Assembly: GCA_965198175.1 (NCBI GenBank)
Contig: OZ240245.1
Coordinates: forward strand, 3,675,030-3,739,029
Direction of reading: 5' to 3'
Length of the DNA: 64,000 bases
Source: Candidatus Poribacteria bacterium
GTDB taxonomy: Bacteria > Poribacteria > WGA-4E > PCPOR2b
The notes below the pieces were generated by a model that saw only the letters and a list, made by a program, of their open reading frames with translations, was not told where the DNA came from and did no database searches. Within the stretch, counting starts at the first letter, position 1, and every line of letters begins with the position of its first letter. The position numbers and the translations under genes were made by a program. This document shows, one piece after another, positions 1 to 56,676 of the stretch.

Positions 1-168
1 GTCGGAACCTTAGACAAATACGGGAAGACGGCGGTGATGCTCAGTATTACTGAACACGGCGGGTATGTTAATGTGTACGGCAAAGGCGAGGGCAAGGCGG
101 TGATTGGAATCAACGAATACGGCAACGGCGTTGTCAACACGTGGGATAAAAACGGGTATCGGCAGTGA
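1..168 (+). CDS. partial CDS, 3' end only: C-terminus of an unknown protein with G/Y/N-rich strand-like repeats
   Basis: Frame 1 is open from the window edge to the TGA at 166-168 (..GGYVNVYGKGEGKAVIGINEYGNGVVNTWDKNGYRQ*). No start lies inside the window. It is not recognisably a Cas protein. Confidence 0.25.
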   Translation, partial: VGTLDKYGKTAVMLSITEHGGYVNVYGKGEGKAVIGINEYGNGVVNTWDKNGYRQ

Positions 169-310
169 TTGGCAATAATGTTCAGACATATAATGTCCCG
201 AATGCACGCTATGGTTCGGCTAAAGTAAAAGGAGGCGGTTGATGGATGCAATACCAGAGAGGCTAGACGGGGCGGGGCGATTGCTCGGTTCAAGTATGGC
301 AAATAAATGG

Positions 311-339
311 TTGACAGGTGAGAAGTAATCTGTTACTCT
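311..339 (+). promoter_or_regulatory. candidate sigma70 promoter facing the CRISPR-like array (TTGACA, 17-nt spacer, TACTCT)
   Basis: The -35 hexamer TTGACA lies at 311-316 and a -10-like TACTCT at 334-339. The region just upstream (172-310) is partly AT-rich and non-coding, like an array leader. The -10 is weak. Confidence 0.25.
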
Positions 340-612
340 AAGAATATCACAGTCGGTGTGGGGTGCTACGGCCGCCAATCCCGGTGGCCGCCCACACAAC
401 ACCTTTAGCACGGTGTATGATTGTGAGACTGTTGATTCCCAATACTTACTTACAATTAAGAGTTTTGCATCAATTCAACAGAACTGTTTAGTGTTCCAAA
501 TAAGTATCGCGTTAGATGTGACAGGCGGAAAGGTGTACTGGACGACTGTAGGCTTTTCCAGCGGCATCCAGCAAAGGTGGTACGGCGAAAGTGAATCTGA
601 TTTTCGCAAATC

Positions 613-650
613 GGTTTTCTGCGGAAAACAGGGGGGTACTTGCGAAACTT
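613..650 (+). repeat. 38-nt conserved element, copy 1 (..TTTCTGCGGAAAACAGGGGGGTACTTGCGAAACTT), followed directly by a repeat-tail-like TACGGCTGAAAG
   Basis: It matches 827-864 at 33 of 38 positions. The two copies sit in different reading frames of the overlapping track ORFs, so the conservation is not due to coding. Confidence 0.5.
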
Positions 651-767
651 TACGGCTGAAAGGACGGTATAACAGGCTGAAAACAGGGTGAAGTCTCTCA
701 ACCAGAATTTCACCAGACACCGCATAAAACTAGATGGGACACAGGTTGGAAGCAATGTTAGGGGTAG

Positions 768-804
768 GTTGCACTCTTTGACGCGATTACAAGCGGACTG
801 AAAG
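768..804 (+). repeat. CRISPR repeat R1 (perfect consensus)
   Basis: The 37-mer is identical to 1833-1869. Confidence 0.7.
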
Positions 805-826
805 AGGCATTAACACAGAGAAAATC

Positions 827-864
827 GTATTTCTGCGGAAAACAGGGGGGATTTTGCGAAACTT
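827..864 (+). repeat. 38-nt conserved element, copy 2, 22 nt downstream of R1; its G6 tract and TTG overlap the predicted start of ORF 854-1240
   Basis: It matches 613-650 at 33 of 38 positions. Confidence 0.5.
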
Positions 865-1240
865 AACAAATAACGTGGATGCGACCGCGATGAAAACGGG
901 GGAGCGCCTCAAGCGCGAGCGGCGGGTCTATGGTCGTTTGTACTTCCGCCGCTTGCACTTCCACAACGATTCATTTTGGCTTGTGTCGTTTCCCAGTCGC
1001 AAGGTTTTTGACAATTGCAAGCGTGCGGTCGAGGTGAGGCGGCTGCTAGGCGGGGCGTATCACTGCCGTTTGGAACGCATGGCTGCCAAAGACGCCAAGT
1101 GTGACGAATTAGTAATGGCCAGGCAATGCCATCACTACGAACCGGCGTCGATGATTGCCCTCGTCGAATACTTAGAACGTGATTGGAATGGCACGCCCCA
1201 ATGTCCTGAATATCATTGCATTCCGCCTCTGCCCGATTGA
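854..1240 (+). CDS. hypothetical Arg-rich and Cys/His-rich small protein (117-128 aa) embedded between CRISPR repeats
   Basis: The ORF runs from a TTG at 854, or an ATG at 890, to the TGA at 1238-1240. It contains several Cys/His clusters (CHHYEP, CPEYHC) that could bind metal. A degenerate repeat starts immediately after its stop codon. Confidence 0.4.
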   Translation: MRNLTNNVDATAMKTGERLKRERRVYGRLYFRRLHFHNDSFWLVSFPSRKVFDNCKRAVEVRRLLGGAYHCRLERMAAKDAKCDELVMARQCHHYEPASMIALVEYLERDWNGTPQCPEYHCIPPLPD

Positions 1241-1278
1241 TTGACACAATCGCAGACGCGGCAAAGCGGCTCTGCGGA
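1241..1278 (+). repeat. degenerate CRISPR repeat (TTGaCAC..GACGCGg-CAAaGCGGcTCTG)
   Basis: It keeps the TTG-CAC, GACGCG and CAAGCGG blocks of the repeat in the right order and at near-correct spacing. It starts 1 nt after the stop of ORF 854-1240. Confidence 0.45.
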
Positions 1279-1343
1279 ACTCGACCGACGGACGAACTAG
1301 TGAAGTCTTTTTTGGAGGCGATCAACTACGCAGAGGTTAGAAA

Positions 1344-1649
1344 ATGTCAATAACCTCACGAAGCTATACTATAGGGGAGGAGGTGATCAATCAATGGCAA
1401 GCAAAAAACGACCTGTTTACCCTGATAACCTGCCGAGCAAAAAAGAAGGAGCCAATGCGGGTAAAGGTAGAACAAACAACCCTAACCCAAAACACGGGAA
1501 GGCTCGTGACAAGTCTACATCTCGCAAAAAGTAGCATTATCGCCCTCAGGGAAGGCTTGGCTTACAATCTTTCCTTGAGGGCTAAGGATGCAAATCAGAA
1601 ATATCTGTTCCACTATGGTGGATGTTTGCGTAGGAGGAAATCATTATGA
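1344..1649 (+). CDS. hypothetical small ORF from the track (101 aa), with an alternative 46-aa Lys-rich ORF from the ATG at about 1394
   Basis: A strong SD (GGGGAGGAGGTGA) sits 7 nt before the ATG at about 1394. My hand translation of the printed sequence around 1437-1444 disagrees with the track by one A. With six A's the short basic ORF MASKKRPVYPDNLPSKKEGANAGKGRTNNPNPKHGKARDKSTSRKK is intact. Confidence 0.25.
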   Translation: MSITSRSYTIGEEVINQWQAKNDLFTLITCRAKKKEPMRVKVEQTTLTQNTGRLVTSLHLAKSSIIALREGLAYNLSLRAKDANQKYLFHYGGCLRRRKSL

Positions 1650-1759
1650 ACGACTACCGACGATGGGAAATACAAAATCCGATGCCGTGGTGGAAGATTC
1701 TCTTAATCTGGGTGGTGGCAGGGATTTTTTTTTGCCTACTCCACGGGCTGGGTTGTGAT

Positions 1760-1796
1760 TAAAAAAGACAGTAGAGAGTGACTAGCGGACTGAAAG
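1760..1796 (+). repeat. degenerate CRISPR repeat; the 3' 13 nt TAGCGGACTGAAAG are conserved
   Basis: It ends in GCGGACTGAAAG and lies exactly one 36-nt spacer (1797-1832) upstream of perfect repeat R2. Confidence 0.5.
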
Positions 1797-1832
1797 AACC
1801 ACAAGCCCATAGCCTTGATTCACTTGCTGAGA

Positions 1833-1869
1833 GTTGCACTCTTTGACGCGATTACAAGCGGACTGAAAG
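1833..1869 (+). repeat. CRISPR repeat R2 (perfect consensus)
   Basis: The 37-mer is identical to 768-804. Confidence 0.7.
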
Positions 1870-1904
1870 CGACGAAACGTGGACGTTTAAAGGAGAATTG
1901 AAGG

Positions 1905-2234
1905 ATGAAAAATAAGAATGAATTAGGCGGTTGCGGAACATTCGCTGTGATCGTATATGTAAGCGTAGTAGGTATCATTGCCGTTATTTGGATAATAGTA
2001 GAGGGTATACCTTATGTTGCAAAAGGCTTTTTGAAAGGCTTAAATGCTGTGGAAACTCGTGTTGGACCAACAGTTCGTAGAATAACCAACGAATCTACTT
2101 TACAAGATTTAAGAGACGATTACTACCATGGCATGAAAACCCCAAAGGGCTGGGACGCTGGCGAGTGGTACAAATACAAAACCGAAACCCCTGGAAAAGC
2201 ACTCCGATACCTTGACCGCTTGGCAATGGATTAG
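1905..2234 (+). CDS. hypothetical small membrane-anchored protein (109 aa; one N-terminal TM helix and a Lys/Tyr/Trp-rich C-terminal domain) embedded in the array
   Basis: The SD AAAGGAG sits 9 nt upstream of the ATG. A hydrophobic helix GTFAVIVYVSVVGIIAVIWIIV is present. Confidence 0.5.
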   Translation: MKNKNELGGCGTFAVIVYVSVVGIIAVIWIIVEGIPYVAKGFLKGLNAVETRVGPTVRRITNESTLQDLRDDYYHGMKTPKGWDAGEWYKYKTETPGKALRYLDRLAMD

Positions 2235-2267
2235 CGCATTGACAACTTTTTAACTTGAGGAGACTTT

Positions 2268-2489
2268 ATGCCACGAACCTTTTATAGTCGTTCCGATATA
2301 GTTGGCACCATCTCAATGCACAATATGCAAATTACAGATACGTTAGACCAAATCAAACGTGCCTTATCCGCTTATGGAAAAGACGCCGAACTTGTTGAAT
2401 GGGAAAATGAAGTTGAGGAGTTATTAAACACGCTCAAATCTAAGGCAAATACTTATGAGAAGGTTTTTAAGATTCGTCCTCTTCAATAA
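2268..2489 (+). CDS. hypothetical small acidic helical protein (73 aa), 33 nt downstream of 1905-2234; the pair may form a small operon
   Basis: The SD GAGGAG sits 8 nt upstream of the ATG. The 33-nt intergenic stretch looks like a vestigial repeat. Confidence 0.45.
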   Translation: MPRTFYSRSDIVGTISMHNMQITDTLDQIKRALSAYGKDAELVEWENEVEELLNTLKSKANTYEKVFKIRPLQ

Positions 2490-2575
2490 GGGAGATTAGC
2501 GGCATCTTCTGCTAATAGTCGTGCATTTACTTTACTGAGTATTCTGTCAGCAGCATCAGTAAGCATGTGGAAAGC

Positions 2576-2612
2576 CGCACTACCTTTGCCGCGATTACAA
2601 GCGGACTGAAAG
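2576..2612 (+). repeat. CRISPR repeat R3 (5' 12 nt diverged, 3' 25 nt perfect)
   Basis: The sequence is ..CTTTGcCGCGATTACAAGCGGACTGAAAG. A 36-nt spacer (2613-2648) follows. Confidence 0.65.
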
Positions 2613-2648
2613 ATTAGAACCCCTGCGCTAAACGCAAGCGATGGAATC

Positions 2649-2685
2649 GTTGCACTCTTTGACGCGATTACAAGCGGAATCACAA
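2649..2685 (+). repeat. CRISPR terminal repeat R4 (first 29 nt perfect, last 8 diverged)
   Basis: The sequence is GTTGCACTCTTTGACGCGATTACAAGCGG followed by aatcacaa. This is the pattern of a degenerate trailer repeat. Confidence 0.65.
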
Positions 2686-3060
2686 TCCAATAGAACGAAT
2701 GTACTCGTAGGCCCAGTAGGTGCGTAGCGTTTACGTCCAAGCTTGAGCCCAGATAATCTGTCATGTGTTTGTTGGCGAAATAGATAAAGACAACCCGAAA
2801 ATGCCAATCAAAGCATTGACATTAACTACGACTCCCAACGGCGGAAGCCATCACCATATACAACAATGAAGAAGAGTCCGTTGTTCGGATAGACATTGAC
2901 GATCGCGAGAACCCCTCTATTAACTGTTAACAAATCACAAGGATGCGTTTGCACCTGTCATTGAAAACGTGACGAAAACCCAGAAACCCAGTAAGTGAAT
3001 GAATTCTCGCGTGTGGTCCGCCATTCGCTTTAACGAAAAATAACAAAATGATAAAATATC

Positions 3061-3090
3061 TTGACAACAGATGATACCATCCCGTACAAT
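3061..3090 (+). promoter_or_regulatory. near-consensus sigma70 promoter (TTGACA, 18-nt spacer, TACAAT)
   Basis: The -35 is at 3061-3066 and the -10 at 3085-3090. It would start transcription at about 3097, toward the 3.1-3.6 kb non-coding or small-ORF region and the 3891 gene. Confidence 0.4.
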
Positions 3091-3615
3091 AGAAGCATTA
3101 ATCTTATGACGCTCTTTAAAAGCTGATCGGCAAGCCCAATAAGAGGCAGCCGGCATCGTCTTTGAACCCTAGACCGCAACAGATAGGCAGCACGAGTCAC
3201 TGACTACTCGCCACTGCTTTTCCTGTGAACAACCCCTTATTTGAATAACCACCGCGCAAGCGGGCAAGACAAACCCGAATGAGGCAGTCTTGAATCTAAA
3301 ACTGTCGCTTTTGGGTTTTTTTTGCTCGCTGCACCAACGACTGAAGCTTCAATGCCTCAAATTACACATGCTGAAAATGGATTACTATCCAAATCCAATC
3401 GCCTGAAACCGCTCTACAACTGGGTTGAAATTACTCGCATTTTATTCTTAATCCATTTCAAAAAATTTTCACATCGCCCGAACCCGCTCCACTACGAGAT
3501 CTCGGCCCGGAAAGAGGGAATTTCTGACCGCCAAAAATGGATTAGAATAGACTGAAGCCCAATCTTAAAGCAATGAGGTGAAAAAAATGCGCAAACAAAT
3601 CCAAAATGAAATCAG

Positions 3616-3722
3616 TTTTTGTAGGTTGGGTTGAGCGGTGATGATGAAACATGTGGACTATGACGAATCGGTTTGTTGGTCAATTGAATTCGAGAATTGT
3701 TGGATGAAGCGAAACGCAACGC
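3616..3722. repeat. left arm of an imperfect inverted repeat of about 105 bp (partner at 4990-5098)
   Basis: Positions 3616-3677 against the reverse complement of 5035-5098 match perfectly over 20- and 27-nt blocks. The match continues to about 3722 at roughly 80% identity. Confidence 0.6.
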
Positions 3723-3890
3723 TTTTTTATGCTTGAGATTGTGTTGAACGGGGTACGTGAGCAGAAAAACTACGGCCTAACTTCGCTATGGTGAACTGCA
3801 GAAACTAACGCAGTCGCTATTCGCTCAGTTGATCTCAACCCAACCTACAAGAACTACAAAAGCTAACGCTAAAGTAAGGGGGATTTTAAG

Positions 3891-4616
3891 ATGATTCGTG
3901 TATTTGCATCATTGGTGCTTGTCTTGGTATGCACAACCTGCGTTTTCTCTCACCCTGTTACCCTGAGATTCAATGTTACAAGTTTAACGGAAGAATCACA
4001 TATAGTGGTTCATGGCGTAGTTGAAAGCTTACAATATGTGTGGCGTGACAATCTTGCCCCTCGCCGGACGACGGACGTTACAATTAGAATCCAAGACATA
4101 CCCAAAGGCGAACCCAACCTTGGAGACGACCGAGTTATTTTCATGATTCCTGGCGGACGGGGATTAGAGGTGCCTCATACACCCAAATTTGACGTAGGAG
4201 AAAAGGTGTTGCTATTCCTGTTTTACACTCCAAGAGGGCCAGAAGCATGGCGGAAAATTCATGGTGGGCTTGTCGTAATCAATAAAAGGGAAGTGGCAAA
4301 TGATACGGAGGTATCTATTCCGTACACAACATATAAGGATAGGGTAGACGGTGGGAGCCCTGAAGTTATAGATTTCGATAAACCCATACATCTTCCTATC
4401 GATTTGGTGGTTAAGCTAGCAGAAGCTGCGTCTAAAGAGCCCCTACTGGTTTTAAGAGCCGAGGAACCAATAATCGAATTTGCTAAACACGCAGAGTGGA
4501 TTGAGTCGAGTAGGTTTACTAAGCCGGGCAAGGACTTATTGGACAGCGTGAAAGCAGATATTGATGAAATTCTAAAATTGAGCGCAAGGAAGGAGGAAAA
4601 CGATAATAAAAAGTAG
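3891..4616 (+). CDS. hypothetical secreted protein (241 aa) with an N-terminal signal peptide
   Basis: The SD GGGGG sits 8 nt upstream. A signal peptide MIRVFASLVLVLVCTTCVFS is present. The gene lies inside the inverted-repeat-bounded cassette. Confidence 0.55.
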   Translation: MIRVFASLVLVLVCTTCVFSHPVTLRFNVTSLTEESHIVVHGVVESLQYVWRDNLAPRRTTDVTIRIQDIPKGEPNLGDDRVIFMIPGGRGLEVPHTPKFDVGEKVLLFLFYTPRGPEAWRKIHGGLVVINKREVANDTEVSIPYTTYKDRVDGGSPEVIDFDKPIHLPIDLVVKLAEAASKEPLLVLRAEEPIIEFAKHAEWIESSRFTKPGKDLLDSVKADIDEILKLSARKEENDNKK

Positions 4617-4989
4617 AATAGCAATGATACTGGTGCTAATGGCTAATTTCTAGGCAACGATGGAATGAACCGGGTCCAGTGGTCGTAAGTTAGGTAGAGC
4701 AGTTTCGAAAAGGGTTGCTGCATAAGAAGGATTTGGTTTCGGGGGCTGAATTGGTCGTGATTCAATCGAAACCGAACTCTCTTTATGTGCTTGACAATGT
4801 GATTAGCGGGGGCCGTGAGCGGAAATAATGTGGAGAAAGCTATCGTACTCGCTATTCGCTCGCTTGATTCTATTCGGTCAATTGAGTTGTTCGCTCAGTT
4901 GATTGTATGGAATGCGTAACGGTAAATTTCCGGCGGGACGAATTTGGAACTTCGGAGAAAACTATCGCCTTCGCTGTCCGCTCAGTTGA

Positions 4990-5098
4990 TCGTTGGGTTT
5001 CGCTCCATCGAACAAATCTCGAACGCAATTAACCGACAAACCGATTCGTCATAATCCACATGTTCCACCACACCCGCTCAACCCAACCTACAAGAACT
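4990..5098. repeat. right arm of the inverted repeat (partner at 3616-3722)
   Basis: It is the reverse complement of the left arm. The internal direct repeat GCTATTCGCTCAGTTGAT occurs three or more times inside the cassette, at about 3795-3830, 4838-4905 and 4955-4990. Confidence 0.6.
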
Positions 5099-7934: not shown

Positions 7935-9214
7935 TTGGGCTCGGTTTGGGCTTGTTTGCGCTCTTAGGCGGCGCATTGTTTGTCCTGCTCGGCGGGTTGG
8001 CGATTTTCGGTTATGCAGCGGCGGGCGATCCGATCAGCAGTATCATTATTGATCTTAATCGCTTGGCGCGCAATCCGACAATCATGACAATCCCGCTGTT
8101 CACCTTCGCCGGCTATGTGATGGCGGAGAGCAACGCCCCCAAGCGTCTCATCGCCCTGGCACAAACGAGTGTTGGTTGGTTGCCGGGCGGTATTGCTGCG
8201 GTTGTGCTGGTGACATGCGCGTTTTTCACGACGTTCACCGGGGCTTCCGGGGTGACAATCATCGCGCTGGGCGGGTTACTCTATCCAATCCTTCGTCAGC
8301 ATTATACGGAACGCTTTTCACTCGGGTTAATCACGACATCGGGCAGTCTCGGACTTCTTTTCCCACCTAGTGTCCCTCTTATCCTCTATGCAATCATCGC
8401 CCAGGTACCGATTGATGTGATGTTCTGTGCAGGGATTCTCCCCGGCTTTCTCCTGCTAGTGATTCTCGTCGGGTACTGCTCTGGCTGGAGTATGTTCAAA
8501 AGGGTCGAACATACCCCCTTTGATTTGCGCGCTTTTGGAGTGGCTCTATGGAATGCTTTGGGAGAAGTACTGCTACCGTTCATTGTGCTTGGTTGTATTA
8601 TATCGGGGATTGTCACAATTGATGAAGCGGCTGCACTGACAGCGATTTATCTGTTGATTGTTGAAATGGTTATCCATCGCGATATTAGTGTCAGGCAGTT
8701 GCCGAAAATTGTGCGAGAGAGCATGCTGCTCGTCGGCGCCATCTTGATTATTCTCTGTATCGCACTGGGACTGACCAACTATCTCGTCACAATCGAATTG
8801 CCGAGCATTGCGCTTGACTGGATTCAAGGGCAGACACAAAACAAGATTGTTACCTTAATTGGACTCAATCTTTTTCTGCTAGCCGTCGGTTGCTTGATGG
8901 ATATCTTTTCCGCCATTGTTATCATTGTTCCCCTGCTGATTCCAATCGCGGAAGGATTCGGGATAGACAAAGCTCACCTTGGTATCATCGTGCTGACGAA
9001 CTTGGAGATTGGCTACTTAACACCGCCCGTTGGCATGAACCTCTTCATCTCAAGCCTCAAGTTTGATAAATCCATTGTTTCACTGTATCGATCTGTGTTG
9101 CTATTCATCGGATTGCTCCTATTCGCACTGATAATCGTCACCTACGTTCCCGCGTTGAGCTTGTGGCTGCCGCGCGTGCTGGGGAAAATGTCCACGCCAC
9201 TGTTGCTTGAATAG
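7922..9214 (+). CDS. dctM: TRAP transporter large permease, DctM family
   Basis: It is a 430-aa polytopic protein with DctM-family conservation. It overlaps the dctQ stop. Confidence 0.8.
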   Translation: MGALIGLGLGLFALLGGALFVLLGGLAIFGYAAAGDPISSIIIDLNRLARNPTIMTIPLFTFAGYVMAESNAPKRLIALAQTSVGWLPGGIAAVVLVTCAFFTTFTGASGVTIIALGGLLYPILRQHYTERFSLGLITTSGSLGLLFPPSVPLILYAIIAQVPIDVMFCAGILPGFLLLVILVGYCSGWSMFKRVEHTPFDLRAFGVALWNALGEVLLPFIVLGCIISGIVTIDEAAALTAIYLLIVEMVIHRDISVRQLPKIVRESMLLVGAILIILCIALGLTNYLVTIELPSIALDWIQGQTQNKIVTLIGLNLFLLAVGCLMDIFSAIVIIVPLLIPIAEGFGIDKAHLGIIVLTNLEIGYLTPPVGMNLFISSLKFDKSIVSLYRSVLLFIGLLLFALIIVTYVPALSLWLPRVLGKMSTPLLLE

Positions 9215-30677: not shown

Positions 30678-30927
30678 TAACCCTTTCAATCTCGAAAATC
30701 GCGCATTGAACGTTGATTAAGGGTCTCACTGTACCCTCCCCGCAATCCCTCTTGGTAAGGAGGAGGACTAGGCTGTAAAGAATCATTCCCCTCCTTACTA
30801 AGGAGGGGTTAGGGGAGGTTCATAACACGTAGCCACGATCAAAGGAGATCGACCGAGCAGATAGCAAGGGCGACAGTTTTCTGAAGACTATCGCCTTCCC
30901 TATTAGGTCAGTTGATCCTCATGCATA

Positions 30928-41327: not shown

Positions 41328-42368
41328 CTATCTAGATAGTGTACTTCCCAACTGTTTAATCCAGCCCCAACTCAATGGTTGCTTCCCGGCAGGAGAAACT
41401 GCGAACTCAACGATAAAGTCCGGGGCGAACCACGCCGGAGACCGGTTGAATGGGCCCGCCTGCCCAATTACCGGTAGGTCAAAGCGATTTTCGTGATTCC
41501 CCTTGCCCGCCCCCGCCTTCACTTCGTATATGGTAATCTTCGAGGAACCGCCTCCGAATATGATTGTGGCTACTTCCTTACCGTCCGGGTTCCACGTCAG
41601 ATCCTGCTTTTCTTCCTGGCTAAAAATTTCATAGACATTTTGGGCACCCTCATCGCCGAGTTCGGCGTCCATCACCCATACATTACCGGTCCCATCTCGT
41701 CGCGTAATCCATCCAATCCGGTCCCCGTCGTGCGAAAATTCGGGCTGGATGTCCTCGCCCTTATGATTTGTGAAATTCACCTGGTTGCCACCGTCTGAAT
41801 TCATCACGTAGATGTCTCCGAGCGTCCGTCCTCGTTTGGAAGCGAACGCAATTCGCCGACCATCCGGCGACCATGAGGGCATTCTATCTGGGGCTGGGTC
41901 GTTTGTGAGGTTGGCAATAATATTGCCCTCGACCGACATTACGTAAATTTCGAGGTTCCCGTCCCGATCAGAAGCGATGGCGAGATTTCTGCCGCCAGGG
42001 TGCCAGTCGGGCCAGCTATCTACCCCTTCATGATCGGTGATTCGCCTCAGGTTCTTGCCGTCAGCGTCTACGATATAGATATCGGTATTTTTCTGCGACG
42101 TCGCATGGAACGCAAGTTTTCGGCCATCCGTGGACCATTCAAGTCCAAGCGGCCGCGGATCGTCATTATCTGTTGCAATGTTGAGCAATGCATTCACAGC
42201 GCCTTTCCCTTCGGGATTTGTCAAAAAAATTGTCTCCTCGCCGGATACTGCTATTGTCGCTTCGTTGGGTGCGAGCGCCTGCCCGCCTATGGGTATAACG
42301 AGGTTGATTAGGATTACCAAGTTGGAGAATGCCAAGATTCTCAAAGTTAATCGCGTTCTTTTTTGCAT
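41328..42368 (-). CDS. TolB-like periplasmic beta-propeller (PD40 repeats), paralogue 1
   Basis: It has a signal peptide, repeated WSPDGRRIAF/SPDG motifs and a conserved tail PAWFAPDFIVEFAVSPAGKQPLSWGWIKQLG. Confidence 0.7.
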   Translation of the reverse strand: MQKRTRLTLRILAFSNLVILINLVIPIGGQALAPNEATIAVSGEETIFLTNPEGKGAVNALLNIATDNDDPRPLGLEWSTDGRKLAFHATSQKNTDIYIVDADGKNLRRITDHEGVDSWPDWHPGGRNLAIASDRDGNLEIYVMSVEGNIIANLTNDPAPDRMPSWSPDGRRIAFASKRGRTLGDIYVMNSDGGNQVNFTNHKGEDIQPEFSHDGDRIGWITRRDGTGNVWVMDAELGDEGAQNVYEIFSQEEKQDLTWNPDGKEVATIIFGGGSSKITIYEVKAGAGKGNHENRFDLPVIGQAGPFNRSPAWFAPDFIVEFAVSPAGKQPLSWGWIKQLGSTLSR

Positions 42369-42569
42369 AAGTCTTGCCTCCGCTTTACAATTTAAAAATT
42401 TACGGCAGTCGCCGTTTATCTAGAAAACTACTGAGAACCAATTGGAATAGGAAAACAACTAGAGTCGAGTGTTGTGCTGTAGCTCAATTTCACTTGTACG
42501 CCGCTCCATTTCTGGTGAGGCATGCAGCAGGTTGAATTATCCGTACGATTGGCGAACGAACCGGAACGC

Positions 42570-42899
42570 CTACTCAACCCTGCCAATCTTGGCGGCTTCT
42601 GGCGCCCGCGTCGGCAAATTCTGCTTAGCGAGCTGATCTTCCGGGATATAGTTGGAGTAATCAGAAATTTTACCGTGGGTCAATGAGTAAACAACAACGT
42701 TTGTCATAAACCGATATACGCCTGGAGAGTAGTGTACGGACCTCGTCGGTAGACTTACCGCCTCCATTGCGCACATGTAATCGCGGCGGACTAATAGCAC
42801 CGAAAGCTTTTCACCAACGGAGATTCCTTCAAGGAAATTGCGTTTTGGTGCTTTTGTGCCAAACCAGAAGATATCGAACCCAACTGGCGGGCCGCCCAT
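42570..42899 (-). CDS. TonB C-terminal-domain-like protein or fragment (109 aa), in the -1 frame relative to 42791-43303
   Basis: The sequence ..LEGISVGEKLSVLLV..AMEAVSL..VHYSPG loosely resembles the TonB C-terminal domain. It has no signal peptide or TM helix of its own. It overlaps the upstream ORF by 109 nt. Confidence 0.4.
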   Translation of the reverse strand: MGGPPVGFDIFWFGTKAPKRNFLEGISVGEKLSVLLVRRDYMCAMEAVSLPTRSVHYSPGVYRFMTNVVVYSLTHGKISDYSNYIPEDQLAKQNLPTRAPEAAKIGRVE

Positions 42900-43303
42900 T
42901 TCATAGAAGTTGTTATAGACCTCGTGTTAACGACCTTGGGAACATTAGGATTGATGGGTTGGTTGAGTTTGACGACTTTATTCGAGAATTCGAGCACCGT
43001 TTGGGGCTCTAAGGATTTCGTGCGAACGACTGCAGTGGTTGTGACTCTGGGTTGCACCTGAACCTGTTCAACGACAACGGTGTTATCCGTTGGAATATTA
43101 GGTTTAATCTGTTTGATAACCGGCTTACGAACTTGGGGTTTCGGCGGCTCAGGCAGTTCAAGAACTTGGGCACCGACTAAGTCTTTGAATTGCGGGGTTT
43201 GTGTGACGAGATAAACACCGAGAATCAGCACAGCGACTCCGTGAAGAATCAACGATGTCATCAAGGCACCTGAAGTTTTCTTGGCACTCATCTTCTGCGT
43301 CAC
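42791..43303 (-). CDS. TonB/TolA-like N-terminal part with a cytoplasmic stub, a TM helix and a Pro-rich spacer (170 aa)
   Basis: The hydrophobic helix is ALMTSLILHGVAVLILGVYLV and the Pro-rich stretch is ELPEPPKPQVRKPVIKQIKPNIP. Confidence 0.5.
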   Translation of the reverse strand: MTQKMSAKKTSGALMTSLILHGVAVLILGVYLVTQTPQFKDLVGAQVLELPEPPKPQVRKPVIKQIKPNIPTDNTVVVEQVQVQPRVTTTAVVRTKSLEPQTVLEFSNKVVKLNQPINPNVPKVVNTRSITTSMKWAARQLGSISSGLAQKHQNAISLKESPLVKSFRCY

Positions 43304-43749
43304 CTCCGATTCGTTAAAGGAAGCGTGGTATTGGACTTAAAATTGAACTGCGCTGCCATTTCGCGGGCTTTATTCTGGATTGTTAATCCCCGTGCCAACC
43401 TGTCTATTTACGATTCAGAAAATGGCGAGCTGACGATACACGGTTCCTGATTCATCACGGCACTTCGCGAACAAACATGCCACGATGTTAACGAATTACC
43501 ATCACCGACAGCCAATCGGTTAAGACGACCGTTGGCTAAAAGGGGGAAAAGCAAATATAATGCCAGCTCGAAATGCTTTAAAAATTAGGCGCGACGCGGC
43601 ACATTACTTGAGAAACTGTTCAATACATGAACAGAGTTGTCCACAAACTGAGCGTTCGTAACTGGCTTGACTGATAATGTTATTTTGAGAGGCGAACCTA
43701 GTTTAACTTTACGGCAACCGTTGGGAACGCGCCTGCTGCTCTCGCACAA

Positions 43750-44796
43750 CTATCTAGATAGTGTGCTTCCCAACTGCTTGATCCAGCCCCAACTCAATGG
43801 TTGTTTCCCGGCAGGAGAAACAGCAAACTCAACCACAAAGTCCGGATCGAACCACGCAGGTGCCCGGTTGATCGAACCAGCCGCCCCAATTACCGGCAGG
43901 TTAAACCGATTTTCGTGATTCCCCTTTCCCCCTGCATCCTTCACCTCGTAAATAACTATCCACGCGGAACCGCCCGCGAACATGATTGTGGCAACTTCCT
44001 TGCCGTCCGGGTTCCACGTCAGATCCTGTTTCTCCTCTTGGCTAAAAATCTCGTACACATTTTCGGCGCCTTCATCACCGAGTTCGGCGTCCATTACCCA
44101 CACGTTGCCGGTTCCGTCTCGTCGTGTGACCCATCCAATCCGGTCACCGTCGTGCGAAAATTCGGGCTGGATGTCCTCACCCTTATGATTTGTGAAATTC
44201 ACCTGGTTGCCACCGTCTGAATTCATCACGTAGATGTCTCCGAGCGTCCGTCCCCGTTTCGAGGCGAACGCAATTCGCCGGCCATCCGGCGACCAGGAGG
44301 GCATTTTGTCTGGGGCAGGGTCGTTAGTGAGGTTGGCTATTGCATTCCCGCCGCTCGTGATTACGTAGATCTCGAGGTTCCCATCTCGGTCGGATGCGAT
44401 AGCGAGCTTATTGCCGCTAGGGTGCCAGTCGGGCCAGCTATCTTCCCCTTCATGATCTGTGATTCGCTTGAGGTTCTTACCATCGGCGTCTACGATAAAG
44501 ACATCGGAATTTTTCTGCGACGTAGCATGGAACGCAAGTTTTCGGCCATCCGGGGACCATTCAATTCCAAGAGGTCGCGGGGCGTCCTTATCTGTTTCAA
44601 TGTTGAGTAGTGCATTGACAGCGCCGCCGCCCTTCCCTTCAGGATCTGTCAAAAAGATAGTCTCCTCGCCAGATACTGCTAATGTCGCTTTGTTGGGTGC
44701 GAGCGCCTGCCCGCCCATTGTAAAAATGAAGTTGAATAGGAAAACAAAACTGGAAACTGCCACGAATCCCAACGTTGATAGCTTTCTGCATTGCAT
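43750..44796 (-). CDS. TolB-like periplasmic beta-propeller, paralogue 2
   Basis: The C-terminal half is nearly identical to paralogue 1. The N-terminal 130 or so aa are about 75% identical. Confidence 0.7.
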   Translation of the reverse strand: MQCRKLSTLGFVAVSSFVFLFNFIFTMGGQALAPNKATLAVSGEETIFLTDPEGKGGGAVNALLNIETDKDAPRPLGIEWSPDGRKLAFHATSQKNSDVFIVDADGKNLKRITDHEGEDSWPDWHPSGNKLAIASDRDGNLEIYVITSGGNAIANLTNDPAPDKMPSWSPDGRRIAFASKRGRTLGDIYVMNSDGGNQVNFTNHKGEDIQPEFSHDGDRIGWVTRRDGTGNVWVMDAELGDEGAENVYEIFSQEEKQDLTWNPDGKEVATIMFAGGSAWIVIYEVKDAGGKGNHENRFNLPVIGAAGSINRAPAWFDPDFVVEFAVSPAGKQPLSWGWIKQLGSTLSR

Positions 44797-44987
44797 AGTT
44801 CTTACCTCCTCTTCACGAGTTTAAAAATCACGGCAAGCGCCGTTTCTCTGTCAAAAACTACTTGAAAACAGTTCCCATTAGGTAATAAAACAGGGTAGAA
44901 ATTGTAATACGCCAATTCTGCTTGCGCGTTTCCAGATAAGAAATTGGAAAACGGTAACGACCCAAATCGACCAACGAACCGTGGAAT

Positions 44988-45317
44988 CTACTCAACCATG
45001 CCAATCTTCGCGGCTTCTGGCGCCCGCGTCGGCAGGTTCTGGTTAGCTAGCTGATCCTCCGGGATATAGTTTGAGTAATCGGAAATCTGACCGTGGGTCA
45101 ATGAGTAAACAACAACGTTCGTCATAAACCGATATACGCCTGGAGAGTAGTGCACCGAACGCGTTGGTAGGCTTACTGCCTCCATCGCGCACATGTAATC
45201 ACGGCGAACTAGCAACACCGAAAGTTTTTCACCAACGGAGATTCCTTCAAGGAAATTGCGTTTTCGTGCTTTTGCACCAAACCAGAAGATATCGAACCCA
45301 ACCGGTGGTCCTCCCAT
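44988..45317 (-). CDS. TonB C-terminal-domain-like protein or fragment, copy 2
   Basis: It differs from 42570-42899 by four aa. Confidence 0.4.
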   Translation of the reverse strand: MGGPPVGFDIFWFGAKARKRNFLEGISVGEKLSVLLVRRDYMCAMEAVSLPTRSVHYSPGVYRFMTNVVVYSLTHGQISDYSNYIPEDQLANQNLPTRAPEAAKIGMVE

Positions 45318-45721
45318 CTCATAGAAGTTGTTATAGACCTCGTGTTAACGACCTTGGGAACATTAGGATTGATGGGTTGGTTGAGTTTGACGACTTTATT
45401 CGAGAATTCGAGCACCGTTTGGGGCTCTAAGGATTTCGTGCGAACGACTGCAGTGGTTGTGACTCTGGGTTGCACCTGAACCTGTTCAACGACAACGGTG
45501 TTATCCGTTGGAATATTAGGTTTAATCTGTTTGATAACCGGCTTACGAACTTGGGGTTTCGGCGGCTCAGGCAGTTCAAGAACTTGGGCACCGACTAAGT
45601 CTTTGAATTGCGGGGTTTGTGTGACGAGATAAACACCGAGAATCAGCACAGCGACTCCGTGAAGAATCAACGATGTCATCAAGGCACCTGAAGTTTTCTT
45701 GGCACTCATCTTCTGCGTCAC
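45209..45721 (-). CDS. TonB/TolA-like N-terminal part, copy 2
   Basis: The first 140 or so aa are identical to 42791-43303. Confidence 0.5.
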   Translation of the reverse strand: MTQKMSAKKTSGALMTSLILHGVAVLILGVYLVTQTPQFKDLVGAQVLELPEPPKPQVRKPVIKQIKPNIPTDNTVVVEQVQVQPRVTTTAVVRTKSLEPQTVLEFSNKVVKLNQPINPNVPKVVNTRSITTSMRWEDHRLGSISSGLVQKHENAISLKESPLVKNFRCC

Positions 45722-45787
45722 CTCCGATTCGTTAAAGGAAGCGTGGTATTGGACTTAAAATTGAACTGCGCTGCCATTTCGCGGGCT

Positions 45788-46816
45788 TTATTCTGGATTG
45801 TTAATCCCCGTGCCAACCTGTTTAATCCAACTCCAGGTCAATGGACGCTTCTCGCCGGGCGATACGGCAAACTGCACAACAAAGTCAGGGTCAAACCAGT
45901 CGGGAGATCGGCTCCCCTGCCATTCCGCGGCGAGTGGCAGGACTTTTCCGTCGGCACGTAAATCGTTTACGACTTCATCTGAATCCATCACAGCGATTTC
46001 CACAAACGGCGCATCCGATAGGACGAGCATTGTACCATCCGGAGACCACGCCGGGTCAAAGTCACAACGCGGTCCGGGCGTGAGATTCTTTACATTTTCT
46101 CCATTAGCATCCATTGTGTGGACATCGCCAGTACCATTGCGTCGGGAGGTCCAGACAATCTTTTGGCTGTCTGGCGACCAACGGGGGTAGCCGTCATCGC
46201 CGCGATGGTTGGTAAGATTCAGCAAGTTTTCGCCATTTGCATCCATGGTGTAGACATCTGAAAGAGTTCTGCCCCGCTTGGTAGCGAACGCAATCTTTCG
46301 ACCGTCTGCCGACCAATCGGGTTGCTTGTCTGGGGCGGGATCGTTTGTGAGGTTCACCCCGACGTTCCCCTGAGCTGTCATTGTGTAGATTTCATAGTTG
46401 CCATCCCGGTTAGTGGTGAAGGCCATCCGCTGACCGCTCGGGTGCCAAGTAGGCCAGCTATCTTCTGCGTCATGGTTGGTGAGTCTCCTGAGCTTCCCCC
46501 CGTCGGCGTTTACAACGTAGATATCAACGTTATCGTTCAGATCGGCATGGAACACAACCCTTCGGCCATCCGGGGACCACCTTACACCCAAGGGTTGGAC
46601 GTCTGCTTTCAGTTGTAGGTCCAATAATGGGCGTAGATTTTCCCCGTCAGGGTCCATCAGCCAAAGATCGCCGTCCGGTTGGCTGCTGGAAAAAACGATT
46701 GTCGGGTCATCGGGTGCCTGCTGTGCTTGAGCGCCTACGGAAAGCATCAAGCTACTCAGAAAAAGCACACCGACCGATAAAAGAGTCCGCGTGGCTAATG
46801 GTAATCTGGGTTGCAT
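45788..46816 (-). CDS. TolB-like periplasmic beta-propeller, paralogue 3
   Basis: PD40 repeats are present. The tail SPDWFDPDFVVQFAVSPGEKRPLTWSWIKQVG is conserved. Confidence 0.7.
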   Translation of the reverse strand: MQPRLPLATRTLLSVGVLFLSSLMLSVGAQAQQAPDDPTIVFSSSQPDGDLWLMDPDGENLRPLLDLQLKADVQPLGVRWSPDGRRVVFHADLNDNVDIYVVNADGGKLRRLTNHDAEDSWPTWHPSGQRMAFTTNRDGNYEIYTMTAQGNVGVNLTNDPAPDKQPDWSADGRKIAFATKRGRTLSDVYTMDANGENLLNLTNHRGDDGYPRWSPDSQKIVWTSRRNGTGDVHTMDANGENVKNLTPGPRCDFDPAWSPDGTMLVLSDAPFVEIAVMDSDEVVNDLRADGKVLPLAAEWQGSRSPDWFDPDFVVQFAVSPGEKRPLTWSWIKQVGTGINNPE

Positions 46817-47364
46817 TGTTATTACCTCTTCTCGCTGTGTTGGTAGTTTGGGTCGGAAGATACAAATCTGAAAAGGAGAAATCCCTTACTCCATTCAAGG
46901 ACAACCTTCGGCGAGTTATCTGGATTGTTCATTTTGCTCAACATAACATTCCGGACAAACCACTATGAGACCTCGACAGGATAGGGGTTACACGTAATTA
47001 TACCATTATTTTATTACTTATGGCTCTAAATGTCAACCTATTTAGTATACTACCACCTAACCGTTCTCAGACCTGAATAAAGAGAGGACCATTGTTCAAT
47101 TGCTACTAAATTGTCGGACAAGTTTCGAACGGTGGTATCAATCGACTGAACGCGGGGCATCCCTGTCCCGATAATCCGGGCTAAGAAGCCTTCCTAAAGT
47201 TATTGTCAACGCTAACCGCACCTCGAATTAGCTCGCACTGACAGAAGTAATGGATCCGTTCGTCAGGGAACGAGTGTAGGATTCGGAATCCCGACCTACC
47301 GATTCAAAATTCACATTAGGCTGTATTAAGGTCGAGTCCTTACGGAGATTTGTGAACTGGATTA

Positions 47365-49314: not shown

Positions 49315-49341
49315 TAAATTGATACTGGATTCTAGGTAATG

Positions 49342-50391
49342 TTAATTGCTCGGTCCCAACTGTTTGAGCCATCCCCAAGTTAACGGGCGCTTTTCAACGG
49401 GCGAAACTTCGAAAGGTGGCGCAGGAAATGCGGGATCGAACCAAGCGGGAGAACGGGCGCGCTTGCCTTTTTCTAGCACTAGAATCTGTACAAAATTCAT
49501 TGCTGCCTTGAGCTCCGCTTCAAGCGTTTCCCCGGCGCCAAGATTGCCGATCTCGTTGTAAATAAAGATACCCTGTGGAAAAGACAAGGAGGCTATGCGT
49601 TTTCCGTCCGGAGACCAAGTTGCGTCCTTCTTTTCCTCTGTACTCTTGATCCACCGCTGATTCTCTCCATCTGGATCAATGAGGTAAACGTCGCCCGTTC
49701 CATCTCGGCGAGACACCCAAGCCAACGTTAGACCGTCTGGCGACCACTTCGGTTGTATGTCCTGACCCTTATGATTGCTGAGATTCTGCAGGTTTTCGCC
49801 TTTCGCATCCATCACATATAGGTCTGCAATCGTCCGACCTCGCTTGGTCGAGAACGCAATCTTTCGGCCATCTGGCGACCACGACGGTTCGGTGTCAGGC
49901 GCAGCATCCCCCGTGAGATTCGCGCCGACGTTCCCTTGAGCCGTCATTGTGTAGATTTCAAAGTTCCCGTCACGTTTGGTGGCGAAGGCGAGCTTTTGAC
50001 CGCTGGGGTGCCAAGTCGGCCAGCTATCTTCCGCCTCATGCTCGGTGAGCCTTCGGAGATTCTCGCCGTCAGCTCTAATCGTATAGATGTCAATGTTATT
50101 CGTCAAATCAGTATGGAAAGCCAGCATTTCACCGTTTGGGGACCATACCAAGCCCGTAGGTACAGGTTCCCCGCCAATTTCCAAAAGCAGGAGGCGATTT
50201 TCGCCAGCGGGATCCATTGACCAAATGCCAACCTCACCTCCCACCCCGTTGGTACCGATCGCAATGGTTGGTCCCACAGGCGCTTGTGCCCGTGCGCTCA
50301 CTAGCAGGACAACACCGTTCAAGATAAGCACGCCGATGAACACAACAGGCGCGCATATGTTCCGAATCTGCACAACTTGTCTGATTTGCAT
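49342..50391 (-). CDS. TolB-like periplasmic beta-propeller, paralogue 4
   Basis: PD40 repeats are present. The tail SPAWFDPAF..VSPVEKRPLTWGWLKQLG is conserved. Confidence 0.7.
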   Translation of the reverse strand: MQIRQVVQIRNICAPVVFIGVLILNGVVLLVSARAQAPVGPTIAIGTNGVGGEVGIWSMDPAGENRLLLLEIGGEPVPTGLVWSPNGEMLAFHTDLTNNIDIYTIRADGENLRRLTEHEAEDSWPTWHPSGQKLAFATKRDGNFEIYTMTAQGNVGANLTGDAAPDTEPSWSPDGRKIAFSTKRGRTIADLYVMDAKGENLQNLSNHKGQDIQPKWSPDGLTLAWVSRRDGTGDVYLIDPDGENQRWIKSTEEKKDATWSPDGKRIASLSFPQGIFIYNEIGNLGAGETLEAELKAAMNFVQILVLEKGKRARSPAWFDPAFPAPPFEVSPVEKRPLTWGWLKQLGPSN

Positions 50392-55405: not shown

Positions 55406-55596
55406 TTAGCATTACCTCCATCTGCAGCCGGTACGGTATAGGATGGCTGAATGCATACCGCTATAGAAAATCCCATCCCGAATACCTGTACACGGCGAGT
55501 TTTTCCAAAACCAAATCTACGTACAACGGCGCAAGTTGTTAAACCGCTAGATTAGCATTACTCACGTCGTTGTGGTTAAGAGTAGACATATCTTAG

Positions 55597-56487: not shown

Positions 56488-56546
56488 TTAGCATTGCCTC
56501 CATCTACACCCAGTATCGTATATGATGCCGCATACATACAGGTAAA

Positions 56547-56585: not shown

Positions 56586-56676
56586 TAGGAACCAAAACTA
56601 CTTAAGCGCCGCGAGTTGCTAAGTGTTATCACTTCCATTACTCACAGTGCTTCGGTTAAGGGACGACAAGGCAAAA

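Follow-up and report, generated by a model that had tools for sequence, protein, structure and literature searches.

CRISPR-like repeats interleaved with small protein genes at a recurrent locus of Candidatus Poribacteria

A stretch of 64,000 nt (64 kb) of Candidatus Poribacteria DNA, referred to here as the window, was analysed. It carries an island in which copies of a 37-nt direct repeat are interleaved with small genes. The arrangement of repeat and gene was found again in six other lineages and is therefore no one-off accident; as the relatives share the pattern, the locus is probably a conserved repurposed array with a candidate function rather than junk. The reading preferred here, held tentatively and at somewhat less than an even chance, is that ectopic, divergently degenerated repeats of type I-B style are co-transcribed with conserved small genes, which would give two fixed crRNA-like guides along with handle-tagged mRNAs.

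Repeats, spacers and genes of the island

The repeat (GTTGCACTCTTTGACGCGATTACAAGCGGACTGAAAG) was searched for across the whole 64-kb window, where the number of copies expected by chance is none. Copies were obtained on the + strand only and were confined to positions 768-2685; no copy was detected elsewhere in the 64 kb, nor outside the islands in the related loci that were fetched. A REP-like element spread genome-wide, named in the first-pass annotation as a possible refutation, was rejected for the 37-nt repeat on the basis of this confinement. A separate, genuine REP-like family is also present. Degenerate copies were evaluated by gapped local alignment on both strands of the window, with a background maximum of 25-26, and by a profile built from 14 copies. 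The features of the island are summarized in Table 1.

Table 1. Features of the island, with positions in the window
Feature	Position	Strand	Description
Duplicate remnant	608-653	+	Truncated copy of the ORF128 5' UTR hairpin, GGGGGG ribosome-binding site and first codons; 87% identical to 822-867
R1	768-804	+	Full 37-nt repeat, 37/37; profile E = 1e-6; last 8 nt ACTGAAAG; upstream repeat of ORF128
ORF128	854-1240	+	Small basic protein with RRVYGRLY motif, TTG start; gene consistently paired with the repeat across lineages
Candidate ORF	1394-1534	+	Possible 46-aa product, Lys/Arg-rich; strong ribosome-binding site
Candidate ORF	1646-1762	+	Possible 38-aa hydrophobic peptide; weak PHROG matches only (E about 0.008)
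psiR	1781-1796	+	Degenerated repeat reduced to its 3' 16 nt with the 8-nt handle, 15/16; profile E = 0.035
S1	1797-1832	+	36-nt spacer; identical in sister strains
R2	1833-1869	+	Full repeat, 37/37; ORF109 start codon 35 nt downstream
ORF109	1905-2234	+	N-terminal membrane helix; called in L001 and L002
ORF73	2268-2489	+	Small helical protein; candidate outside the sister strain
R3	2576-2612	+	29/37; 5' 8 nt diverged, 3' 29 nt kept; small hairpin of 4 bp
S2	2613-2648	+	36-nt spacer, partly palindromic; one substitution relative to the sister strain
R4	2649-2685	+	Terminal repeat, 33/37; first 30 nt kept, last 7 nt (handle) diverged

Four copies had earlier been called identical, a description that applies to R1 and R2 only, R3 and R4 being diverged. 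The accompanying claim of at least three degenerate copies stands for psiR, which ends exactly 36 nt 5' of R2 and so lies one spacer length upstream of it as described; the remaining ones are no better than background. The copy proposed right after the stop of ORF128 (about 1241-1280) and that proposed near 645-661 both gave background scores and were both missed by the profile. The resemblance at 645-661 comes after a shortened second copy of the ORF128 5' end (608-653 against 822-867). The frame of this copy stops after 10 codons, and it is therefore taken as what is left of a former cassette located 5' of R1.

The pattern of an ordinary array, at least three near-identical direct repeats of 23-47 nt, was found in the island (37, 37, 29 and 33 of 37 positions, plus one 16-nt fragment), and regular spacing by spacers of similar length was not. 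Intervals of 36 nt are seen only at the two spacers, which were correctly recognized at the outset, as was the 706-nt interval between the second and third repeats; this interval (R2-R3) and that of 976 nt between R1 and psiR bear genes. psiR, S1 and R2 together make a one-spacer mini-array. All partial copies (10/10) retain the 3' end of the repeat, and the 5' end is retained in the array-terminal R4 only. The inserts have a whole repeat as their left bound and a 5'-truncated repeat as their right bound.

Spacer turnover was absent among the window, L001 and L002 (related loci are given by their numbers), S1 being identical and S2 differing by one base, and both spacers hold steady between strains diverged elsewhere by up to about 5%. 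For S1, the window, the loci fetched and IMG/VR yielded no target, and the search for targets of S2 likewise returned none. Neither the two spacers nor the sequence following each repeat gave a convincing partial match to promoters in the window and the loci, the best runs of 10-12 nt being at chance level.

The repeat resembles CRISPR repeats of the Cas6 type. It ends in GGACTGAAAG, and its last 10 nt match Synechocystis repeats at 9 of 10 positions, the Cas6 products of which carry the 8-nt tag ACUGAAAC (PMC3575380). This result is in accordance with the initial observation that the repeat end resembles a Cas6 handle. The sole structure predicted for the repeat is a hairpin of 3-4 bp (CGC/GCG) directly 5' of the handle. 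Rfam yielded only a sub-threshold match to CRISPR-DR10, at 17 bits (gathering score 39). Neither the repeat nor a canonical array containing it was found in GTDB representative genomes, JGI metagenomes or IMG/VR, a scan that lies outside the locus-carrying genomes themselves, and a search for spurious ORFs translated from arrays of this repeat gave nothing. No cas genes were detected in the 64-kb window or in the 8 kb upstream in the sister strain.

The ORFs do lie between the repeats on the + strand, as had been reported, and genes and repeats thus have a common strand. The possible refutation that the ORFs lack homologues or a coding signal fails for ORF128, a real gene whose family has homologues and is under purifying selection (dN/dS 0.28-0.45). 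For ORF109 there is one homologue, 59% identical and frame-broken, in the L010 island at 8490-8690, and the ORFs at 1394-1534, 1646-1762 and 2268-2489 remain candidates, no homologue beyond the sister strain being present in the sequences searched. In the sister strain the gene caller picked an overlapping 101-aa frame at 1344-1649 and not 1394-1534. The ORF128 family is small: all its matches come from contigs that are relatives of a Candidatus Poribacteria genome, and there are none in IMG/VR, GenBank phages or PLSDB plasmids. The adjacent small orphan genes match no known family or fold, and no known Acr protein is similar to a gene product of the island. The small genes are confined to their lineage as orphans and evolve at a fairly high rate.

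Recurrence of the gene-repeat pairing in relatives

The ORF128 family in the six other lineages always has, on the same strand, a repeat or the 3' 12-23 nt of one (GCGGACTGAAAG) upstream, and often downstream too; with the window included, the pairing holds in 7 of 7 lineages. The upstream element is a 34/37 variant in L001, a 24/32 copy followed by a 5' UTR as in the window in L008, and a full 37-nt unit (29/37) lying 101 nt upstream in L010. Fragments of 21-23 nt are placed 7 nt before the ATG in L003 and L006, and ATTGAAAC is found 16 nt before the GTG start in L009. Fragments also occur 3' of the stop codon in L003, L006 and L009, at a distance of 3-4 nt in the first two, where a TTGACA-N17-GATAAA site is positioned directly 5' of the upstream motif. 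The exact 11-mer CGGACTGAAAG has 9 occurrences in independent lineages compared to about 0.07 expected in the ~136 kb examined, all of them inside islands and on the gene strand.

The fragments of 12-23 nt in L003 and L006 are without the 5' two-thirds of the repeat, and their recognition by Cas6 is for this reason doubtful. When these two loci were compared, the motif was about 83% conserved, which is no better than its flanks (about 83%). In both, some 40 nt of conserved sequence (34/41 identical) and then a T-run come after the last motif, as in a crRNA-like gene that has one repeat and ends at a terminator (PMC8501985).

A cassette with the gene ORF150 is present in L006 and missing in L003, exactly between two motif copies, thereby supporting the first-pass proposal that genes occupy the positions of spacers. 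Loss of spacers proceeds likewise, through recombination between repeats. In L009 the module was located 3.1 kb upstream of a type I-B operon with cas6 (TIGR01877), cas8b1/Cst1 (TIGR01908) and cas7/Cst2 (TIGR02585). The neighbours of the island are constant across lineages, comprising a membrane-anchored repeat-protein family and ORF109 with a DUF6785 gene nearby, and the island accordingly has the appearance of a resident rather than a recent arrival. Traces of mobile elements are a truncated tyrosine recombinase in L003 and, in L001 only, ParB-like and DUF7119 genes before R1.

Proposed mechanism and competing explanations

In the preferred reading the locus would no longer work as an adaptive array. 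The island would be transcribed on the + strand together with its small genes, and a Cas6 encoded elsewhere in the genome would cut every repeat 8 nt short of its end, with predicted sites at 796/797, 1788/1789, 1861/1862, 2604/2605 and, in the last repeat, 2677/2678. The products would be two crRNA-like RNAs with S1 and S2 as fixed guides, for which the upstream repeat would give the 3' handle part and the downstream repeat the 5' part. The mRNA of ORF128 with the small ORFs downstream and that of ORF109-ORF73 would be released as well, each starting with the handle ACUGAAAG, and expression would therefore be tied to the CRISPR machinery. Cas proteins may load on these RNAs, which may have a regulatory or toxin role; that Cas6 cleavage would free each ORF as its own mRNA is purely conjectural. 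The repeats may double as points of gain and loss of gene cassettes.

The first-pass view that no standard class covers such an arrangement was overstated, as CreA/CreR, Racr and multiplexed viral crRNA-like units with Acr have already been described (PMC8501985, PMC9458426, PMC10651486, bioRxiv 10.1101/2024.10.29.618823). CreA/CreR genes specify crRNA-like regulators and are degenerated mini-CRISPRs at ectopic sites, known for types I-B, I-E, I-F and V-A (PMC8501985, PMC9458426, bioRxiv 10.1101/2023.03.10.532045). Of the two creA repeats, psiR1 has its last 8 nt left and psiR2 its first 22 nt (PMC8501985; PMC9458426), and the same retention, last 8 nt in the upstream repeat and first ~22 nt in the downstream one, was found in psiR-S1-R2 and in R3-S2-R4. 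The decay thus runs in the direction seen in creA, with the handle end kept upstream and the 5' part kept downstream. Further likenesses are the one or two degenerated repeats around a single fixed spacer, the missing spacer turnover, the type I-B context (seen here in L009), the adjoining small ORFs with strong ribosome-binding sites and the terminator-ended one-repeat versions (here L003 and L006). There are also differences. A CreA/CreR spacer is complementary in part to a promoter, of a toxin or a cas gene, with a PAM alongside, and in this class processing depends on Cas6 and repression on Cascade. In the window and loci no match of spacer to promoter exceeds the chance runs of 10-12 nt, and two repeats of the window are not degenerated at all. 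CreA/CreR lie in or beside a cas operon, whereas any cas gene is at least 8 kb away from the locus in the window on one side and 61 kb on the other, and only the L009 relative is near one. In place of a mini-ORF RNA toxin, conserved genes for proteins of 73-128 aa are interleaved with the repeats, and repeat fragments here flank genes with no adjoining spacer-like unit.

A neutral relic, rather unlikely in our estimation, would be an orphan type I-B array left after loss or movement of the cas genes, into which illegitimate and repeat-mediated recombination inserted unrelated small genes, the repeats being functionless. The lack of nearby cas genes, the presence of only two spacers with neither turnover nor known targets, the decayed repeat ends and the L003-L006 motif conserved no better than its flanks are consistent with this, and the motif copies of L010 could partly stem from segmental duplication of whole modules. 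Decay alone is difficult to reconcile with two repeats that remain 37/37 identical, with the retention of the 3' end in ten of ten partial copies and of the 5' end alone in none although the flanks are unalignable between lineages, with the pairing of one protein family to the repeat in every lineage, and with purifying selection on genes that share the strand of the repeats. Orphan arrays served by Cas6 in trans, as in Anabaena PCC 7120, are similarly remote from cas genes, and their repeats are of the 37-nt class that has GAAAC/G at the 3' end; they have regular spacers, whereas in the window 2 of 4 inter-repeat intervals are spacers and the others gene segments of 0.7-1.0 kb (bioRxiv 10.1101/2020.04.14.041012).

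That a mobile element gave rise to the island as an anti-CRISPR locus is unlikely. Its solitary repeats and mini-arrays would be Racr- or Cracr-like RNA decoys or hijacking guides that soak up or reprogram Cas proteins of the host's type I-B system, with protein anti-CRISPRs encoded by the small genes in the same operons. Racr/Cracr units (PMC10651486; bioRxiv 10.1101/2024.10.29.618823) are likewise single CRISPR repeats away from cas genes that, on the same strand, immediately follow a promoter-like site or come a few nt past the stop of a small orphan gene, with several units in one array-like transcription unit. Solitary units are known just downstream of promoters and beside small acr genes, one of them 11 nt past an acr stop codon in a bicistronic RNA (PMC10651486), and crRNA-like units of viruses frequently occur multiplexed, in array-like transcription units that also include Acr proteins (bioRxiv 10.1101/2024.10.29.618823). 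The motif past the ORF128 stop and the TTGACA-N17-GATAAA site in L003 and L006 resemble these layouts, and the lineage-restricted, fairly fast-evolving orphan genes, the gene content differing between close strains (ParB-like and DUF7119 in L001 only) and the truncated phage-type integrase of L003 point in the same direction. Racr/Cracr, however, belong to phages, prophages and plasmids, whereas the island appears to be a syntenic chromosomal locus, its position and neighbour families being conserved across lineages at dS 0.25-0.58. It contains no intact mobility or virion gene, the ORF128 family is unmatched in the viral and plasmid collections named above, no gene resembles known Acr proteins, and the L009 module adjoins a cas operon itself. 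Many island copies, in addition, keep 12-23 nt only, below the coverage needed for calling a solitary repeat unit, a class defined also by 90% identity or more to a repeat of the host's own CRISPR system.

The repeat 3' end might serve as an mRNA tag, which we regard as quite improbable. The small-gene mRNAs would start with the ACUGAAAG handle, either by Cas6 cleavage or by initiation of transcription at the fragment, and Cas5/Cas7 would assemble on the adjoining 5' UTR and ribosome-binding site, translation being off while Cas is present and on when Cas is lost or inhibited. If true, the outcome would be a module for post-transcriptional addiction or alarm. The ORF128 family would count as CRISPR-associated and new, and the array would have a second role as a platform for cassettes.

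Least probable, and only a slight prospect, is an integron-like platform acting at the DNA level, with the repeat 3' part as recombination site for small-gene cassettes through a recombinase or Cas1-like integration of over-long inserts: small, promoter-poor, same-strand genes with a recurring short site between them and presence or absence between sites recall integron cassettes, and the motif-bounded indel, the whole left and 5'-truncated right repeats, an exchange between the window and L001 that took in the 5' UTR of ORF128 with its N-terminal codons and had its left edge at R1, and the recombinase fragment adjoining the L003 module agree with it, but no IntI, attI, attC structure or attC-like imperfect inverted repeat was found in the sequences read, the recurring site is a CRISPR repeat 3' end, no locus has an intact recombinase or cas1, the L003 integrase is without its N-terminus and catalytic tyrosine region, the right-hand homology breakpoints fall inside ORF128 (about 910) and not at the motif, and ordinary recombination between once-longer repeats accounts for the indel equally well.

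Significance of the gene-repeat pairing

Ectopic CRISPR repeats make regulatory or decoy RNAs, and in every described case known to us the repeat is either solitary or placed around a short guide. In the present islands conserved protein genes on the same strand are framed by repeats, or by their handle-bearing 3' ends alone, and the pairing of gene and repeat persists across divergent lineages related to the uncultivated phylum Candidatus Poribacteria. If neither the RNA-level nor the DNA-level coupling holds, the locus would be a well-documented example of orphan-array decay. If the coupling is at the DNA level, a CRISPR array would be acting as a platform for gene cassettes. If it is at the RNA level, the control exerted by Cas6/Cascade would extend from guides to messenger RNAs, and a new CRISPR-associated family would be nominated.

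Repeats and spacers of the locus

A 37-nt direct repeat (R, GTTGCACTCTTTGACGCGATTACAAGCGGACTGAAAG) was found on the + strand of the window at 768-2685. The layout revealed two one-spacer units, psiR-S1-R2 and R3-S2-R4 (psiR is a 3' remnant of R, S1 and S2 are the spacers), and the solitary copy R1, separated by gene-bearing gaps of 976 nt and 706 nt. The first-pass annotation had described gene-sized segments between CRISPR-like repeats over 611-2685, and had proposed Cas6 release of each open reading frame (ORF) as its own mRNA, the locus being either an array broken up by small genes or a set of repeat-delimited gene cassettes; this observation was confirmed in part and its interpretation partly supported. 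The additional degenerate copies placed at ~1241 and ~645 did not exceed background (maximum 25-26) when the whole window was aligned with gaps, and a profile built from 14 repeat copies missed them too. It was also considered that R might be a REP-like element. No copy of R was found elsewhere in the 64 kb and its 3' 16-mer occurred elsewhere only at chance level, which rules out a dispersed REP element.

The sole structure obtained on folding R was a 3-4-bp hairpin directly 5' of the handle, that is, the last 8 nt of R, which resemble the tag left by Cas6. At its 3' end R agrees with the 37-nt Synechocystis repeats in 9/10 of the final positions, and these repeats have been shown by experiment to yield the 8-nt Cas6 tag ACUGAAAC (PMC3575380). 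The protospacer search of IMG/VR gave none for S1 and S2, and their self-targets in the window and the related loci were chance-level runs only. The diverged 3' end of R4 (CACAAT) and the repeat's own TTGACG form a promoter-like pair 16 nt apart (9/12; window 2659-2686). Such a match is expected by chance in this region, and no ORF lies downstream.

The R 22-mer gave no match in GTDB genomes, nor did a 20-mer in JGI metagenomes or the 22-mer with a degenerate pattern in IMG/VR, and blastn against plasmids and phages returned chance matches only. A synthetic peptide, the reverse-strand translation of repeat-spacer-repeat meant to catch spurious ORFs across genuine arrays, found no candidate among 5.8 billion proteins, which is weak negative evidence. 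No Rfam family was found in the whole window at the gathering threshold; at E <= 10 over 400-3950 the sole match was CRISPR-DR10 on R3, below threshold.

Positions of repeats, spacers, genes and repeat families in the window, its sister-strain locus (L001) and related loci
Feature	Locus	Position	Strand	Remarks
R1	window	768-804	+	identical to R2; solitary; 49 nt upstream of ORF128 start
R2	window	1833-1869	+	identical to R1
R3	window	2576-2612	+	29/37; divergence confined to first 8 nt
R4	window	2649-2685	+	33/37; divergence confined to last 7 nt
psiR	window	1781-1796	+	15/16 against 3' end of R; exactly 36 nt upstream of R2
S1	window	1797-1832	+	spacer of psiR-S1-R2
S2	window	2613-2648	+	spacer of R3-S2-R4
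ORF128	window	854-1240		TTG start; ribosome-binding site GGGGGG
ORF46	window	1394-1534		candidate ORF
ORF38	window	1646-1762		candidate ORF
ORF109	window	1905-2234		
ORF73	window	2268-2489		candidate ORF
First repeat region	L001	8810-8858		34/37 variant; substitutions G4A, T10A, T11C
Upstream copy	L008			24/32, then 5' UTR same as the window's
Upstream fragments	L003, L006			21-23 nt, ending GCGGACTGAAAG or ACGGACTGAGAG; 7 nt before ATG
Upstream fragment	L009			ATTGAAAC; 16 nt before GTG start
Upstream unit	L010			complete 37-nt unit ATTGCAGCCTTTGCCGCGATGAAGAGCGGACTGAAAG (29/37); 101 nt upstream
AQRDKFGEIEC family	window	1-168	+	
AQRDKFGEIEC family	L001	4326-4952		
AQRDKFGEIEC family	L003	8772-9170, 9690-9873		
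AQRDKFGEIEC family	L010	10323-10685, 15726-16136		and two more
REP-like family	window	3613-3651, 3800-3855, 4835-4869, 4957-4991, 5077-5098, 30883-30917		
REP-like family	L009	2900-3120		
REP-like family	L010	6850-7160		

Genes between the repeats and their pairing with repeat ends

The coding signal of ORF128 was borne out: homologues were found in six other lineages with pairwise dN/dS of 0.28-0.45; ORF128 thus encodes a genuine protein that evolves fairly fast. A 46-nt element comprising its ribosome-binding site and first codons is present twice (608-653 and 822-867). The 608-653 copy runs for ten codons to a stop; it is what is left of an earlier cassette like that of ORF128, not a repeat of the CRISPR kind. 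ORF109 is matched at 59% identity by a frame-broken homologue in the equivalent island of a different genome. ORF46, ORF38 and ORF73 had no comparator beyond the near-identical sister strain and are candidate ORFs only. Right after the stop of ORF46, at 1542-1582 (+), the sequences GCCCTCAGGGAAGG ... CTTTCCTTGAGGGC form a long imperfect inverted repeat, which has no T-run and may act as a hairpin in mRNA stabilisation or processing.

A same-strand R or its 3' end lies upstream of every ORF128-family gene examined, namely those of the window, L001 and the related loci L003, L006, L008, L009 and L010. In L001 the substitutions of the variant repeat pair its 5' end with the 11 nt right after it, giving a 10-bp stem that encloses the hairpin and handle (-19.6 kcal/mol, z = -3.7; 1/200 shuffles as stable). 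A handle-like 12-mer, GCCGACTGAAAA, is located 18 nt upstream of this repeat. The upstream fragments of L003 and L006 stand directly 3' of a TTGACA-N17-GATAAA site, and fragments also occur 3-4 nt past the stop of the gene; in both loci the handle is followed by a conserved ~40-nt stretch and a T-run. A third motif copy follows a second cassette in L006, L010 has two further partial units, each lying shortly before another small ORF, and in L009 the 3' end of the ORF has taken up the downstream fragment (19/24 over TTGACGCGAT...). The exact 11-mer CGGACTGAAAG occurred 9 times in independent lineages against ~0.07 expected, each time within the island and on the strand of the gene.

All ten partial copies (10/10) retain the 3' end, the 5' end being retained only by the array-terminal R4. 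A neutral relic, in which the repeats have no present function, would fit the absence of cas genes nearby and of spacer targets, but it leaves this one-sided retention of the handle end and the consistent association with a single gene family unexplained, and is considered unlikely. The flanks cannot be aligned between lineages although the synonymous divergence of ORF128 is only 0.25-0.58, so recombination has swapped the contexts around a repeat end that was kept. The ORF150 cassette is present or absent between L006 and L003 exactly between two motif copies.

A membrane-anchored protein family with a conserved N-terminal AQRDKFGEIEC motif, 22-residue tandem repeats (66-nt DNA period in L001) and no Pfam match may be part of the ORF128 module, since it always adjoins the ORF128 family. 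At 9170-9690 of L003, embedded in the repeat-protein gene and directly 5' of the ORF128 module, lies a tyrosine-recombinase gene fragment that lacks the N-terminus and the catalytic tyrosine region and is the scar of an old integration.

Genomic surroundings and the link to CRISPR-Cas

Outside the locus the window carries ordinary chromosomal genes (TRAP transporter, MatE, carbamoyl-phosphate synthase, ABC transporters, TPR and WD40 proteins, adenylate kinase). Neither cas genes nor a tRNA were found in the 64 kb, the latter ruling out a tRNA-adjacent integration site. The sister-strain locus, on a 2.67-Mb metagenome contig, adds 8 kb upstream, also with no cas gene found; ParB-like and DUF7119 genes, both missing from the window, directly precede its first repeat. 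Recent transfer of the cassette region (3 differences in 1650 nt between the window and L001) was dropped after sliding-window comparison because the surrounding region as a whole proved to be a mosaic, with segments 95-100% alike.

Promoter and terminator counts over 1-4000 equalled shuffle expectation, the single strong site lying outside the locus. At 3061-3315 (+), ~220 nt with no ORF follow a near-consensus promoter (TTGACA, 18 nt, TACAAT; 11/12) and end in a long hairpin and T8 run (~3270-3312). This stretch resembles a small RNA gene; it had no Rfam match and its folding energy was unremarkable (z = -1.7). The gene-free 1.2 kb after the last repeat holds a 21-nt unit, TAACTGTTAACAAATCACAAG, single at 2927-2947 and tandemly duplicated at L001 11017-11058. 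A REP-like intergenic family (core TTGTAGGTTGGG...GATCAACTGAGCG / CTCAACCCAACCTACAAGAACT), distinct from R, occurs in both orientations and is common to several lineages. On the - strand lie four tandem PD40/WD40-type beta-propeller paralogues with small ORFs (41328-50391; spacing ~2.0-3.6 kb) and three tandem Laminin_G_3 genes (54500-57555; spacing ~1.08 kb; up to 100% identity over 210 nt).

Linkage to cas genes was observed in one lineage: in L009 the ORF128 module is 3.1 kb upstream of a type I-B operon (cas6, cas8b1/Cst1, cas7/Cst2). L008 is probably arranged likewise, as its neighbouring gene is the same. An anti-CRISPR island of mobile-element origin would accommodate two layouts, a repeat that directly follows a small orphan gene and one that directly follows a promoter, both reported for solitary repeat units (PMC10651486) and viral crRNA-like arrays (bioRxiv 10.1101/2024.10.29.618823), together with the integrase fragment of L003 and the ParB-like gene of L001. 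This origin is nevertheless rather improbable: chromosomal synteny is conserved, mobility genes are absent, no phage or plasmid relative was found, and the L009 module stands beside a cas operon itself.

Comparison with ectopic CRISPR repeats

The best fit is with the ectopic, degenerated repeats known from type I systems. The upstream repeat of a creA gene keeps its last 8 nt, giving the 5' handle bound by Cas5, and the first ~22 nt are kept in the downstream repeat; through degeneration the unit becomes stable towards recombination, and versions with a single repeat end at a terminator (PMC8501985; PMC9458426). Both mini-arrays of the window follow this degeneration rule, their spacers are frozen between the window and the sister strain, and the handle, ~40 nt and T-run of L003 and L006 are creA-like; processing by a type I-B Cas6 is proposed because of these likenesses. 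In contrast to CreA/CreR, no spacer-to-promoter match was found in the window and loci, and the locus has no position beside cas genes (64 kb, and 8 kb upstream in the sister strain).

The locus would thus be transcribed rightward and processed by Cas6 into two fixed crRNA-like guides and handle-tagged mRNAs of the interleaved genes, and the repeats would double as joints for cassette exchange. Observed are the anatomy of the sequence, its conservation, the ORF150 indel and the cas linkage of L009; we infer the transcription, the cleavage and any regulatory outcome, and the mechanism as a whole is put forward tentatively, at somewhat short of an even chance. A purely DNA-level action of the repeats as an integron-like platform is supported by the single ORF150 indel but is very improbable: it lacks a recombinase and the remaining breakpoints lie off the motif.

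Ectopic CRISPR repeats with non-defence roles, to which the locus is assigned as the best fit, are an already known kind. The literature consulted does not describe the variant seen here, in which, across a bacterial lineage, conserved protein genes are framed by repeat ends.
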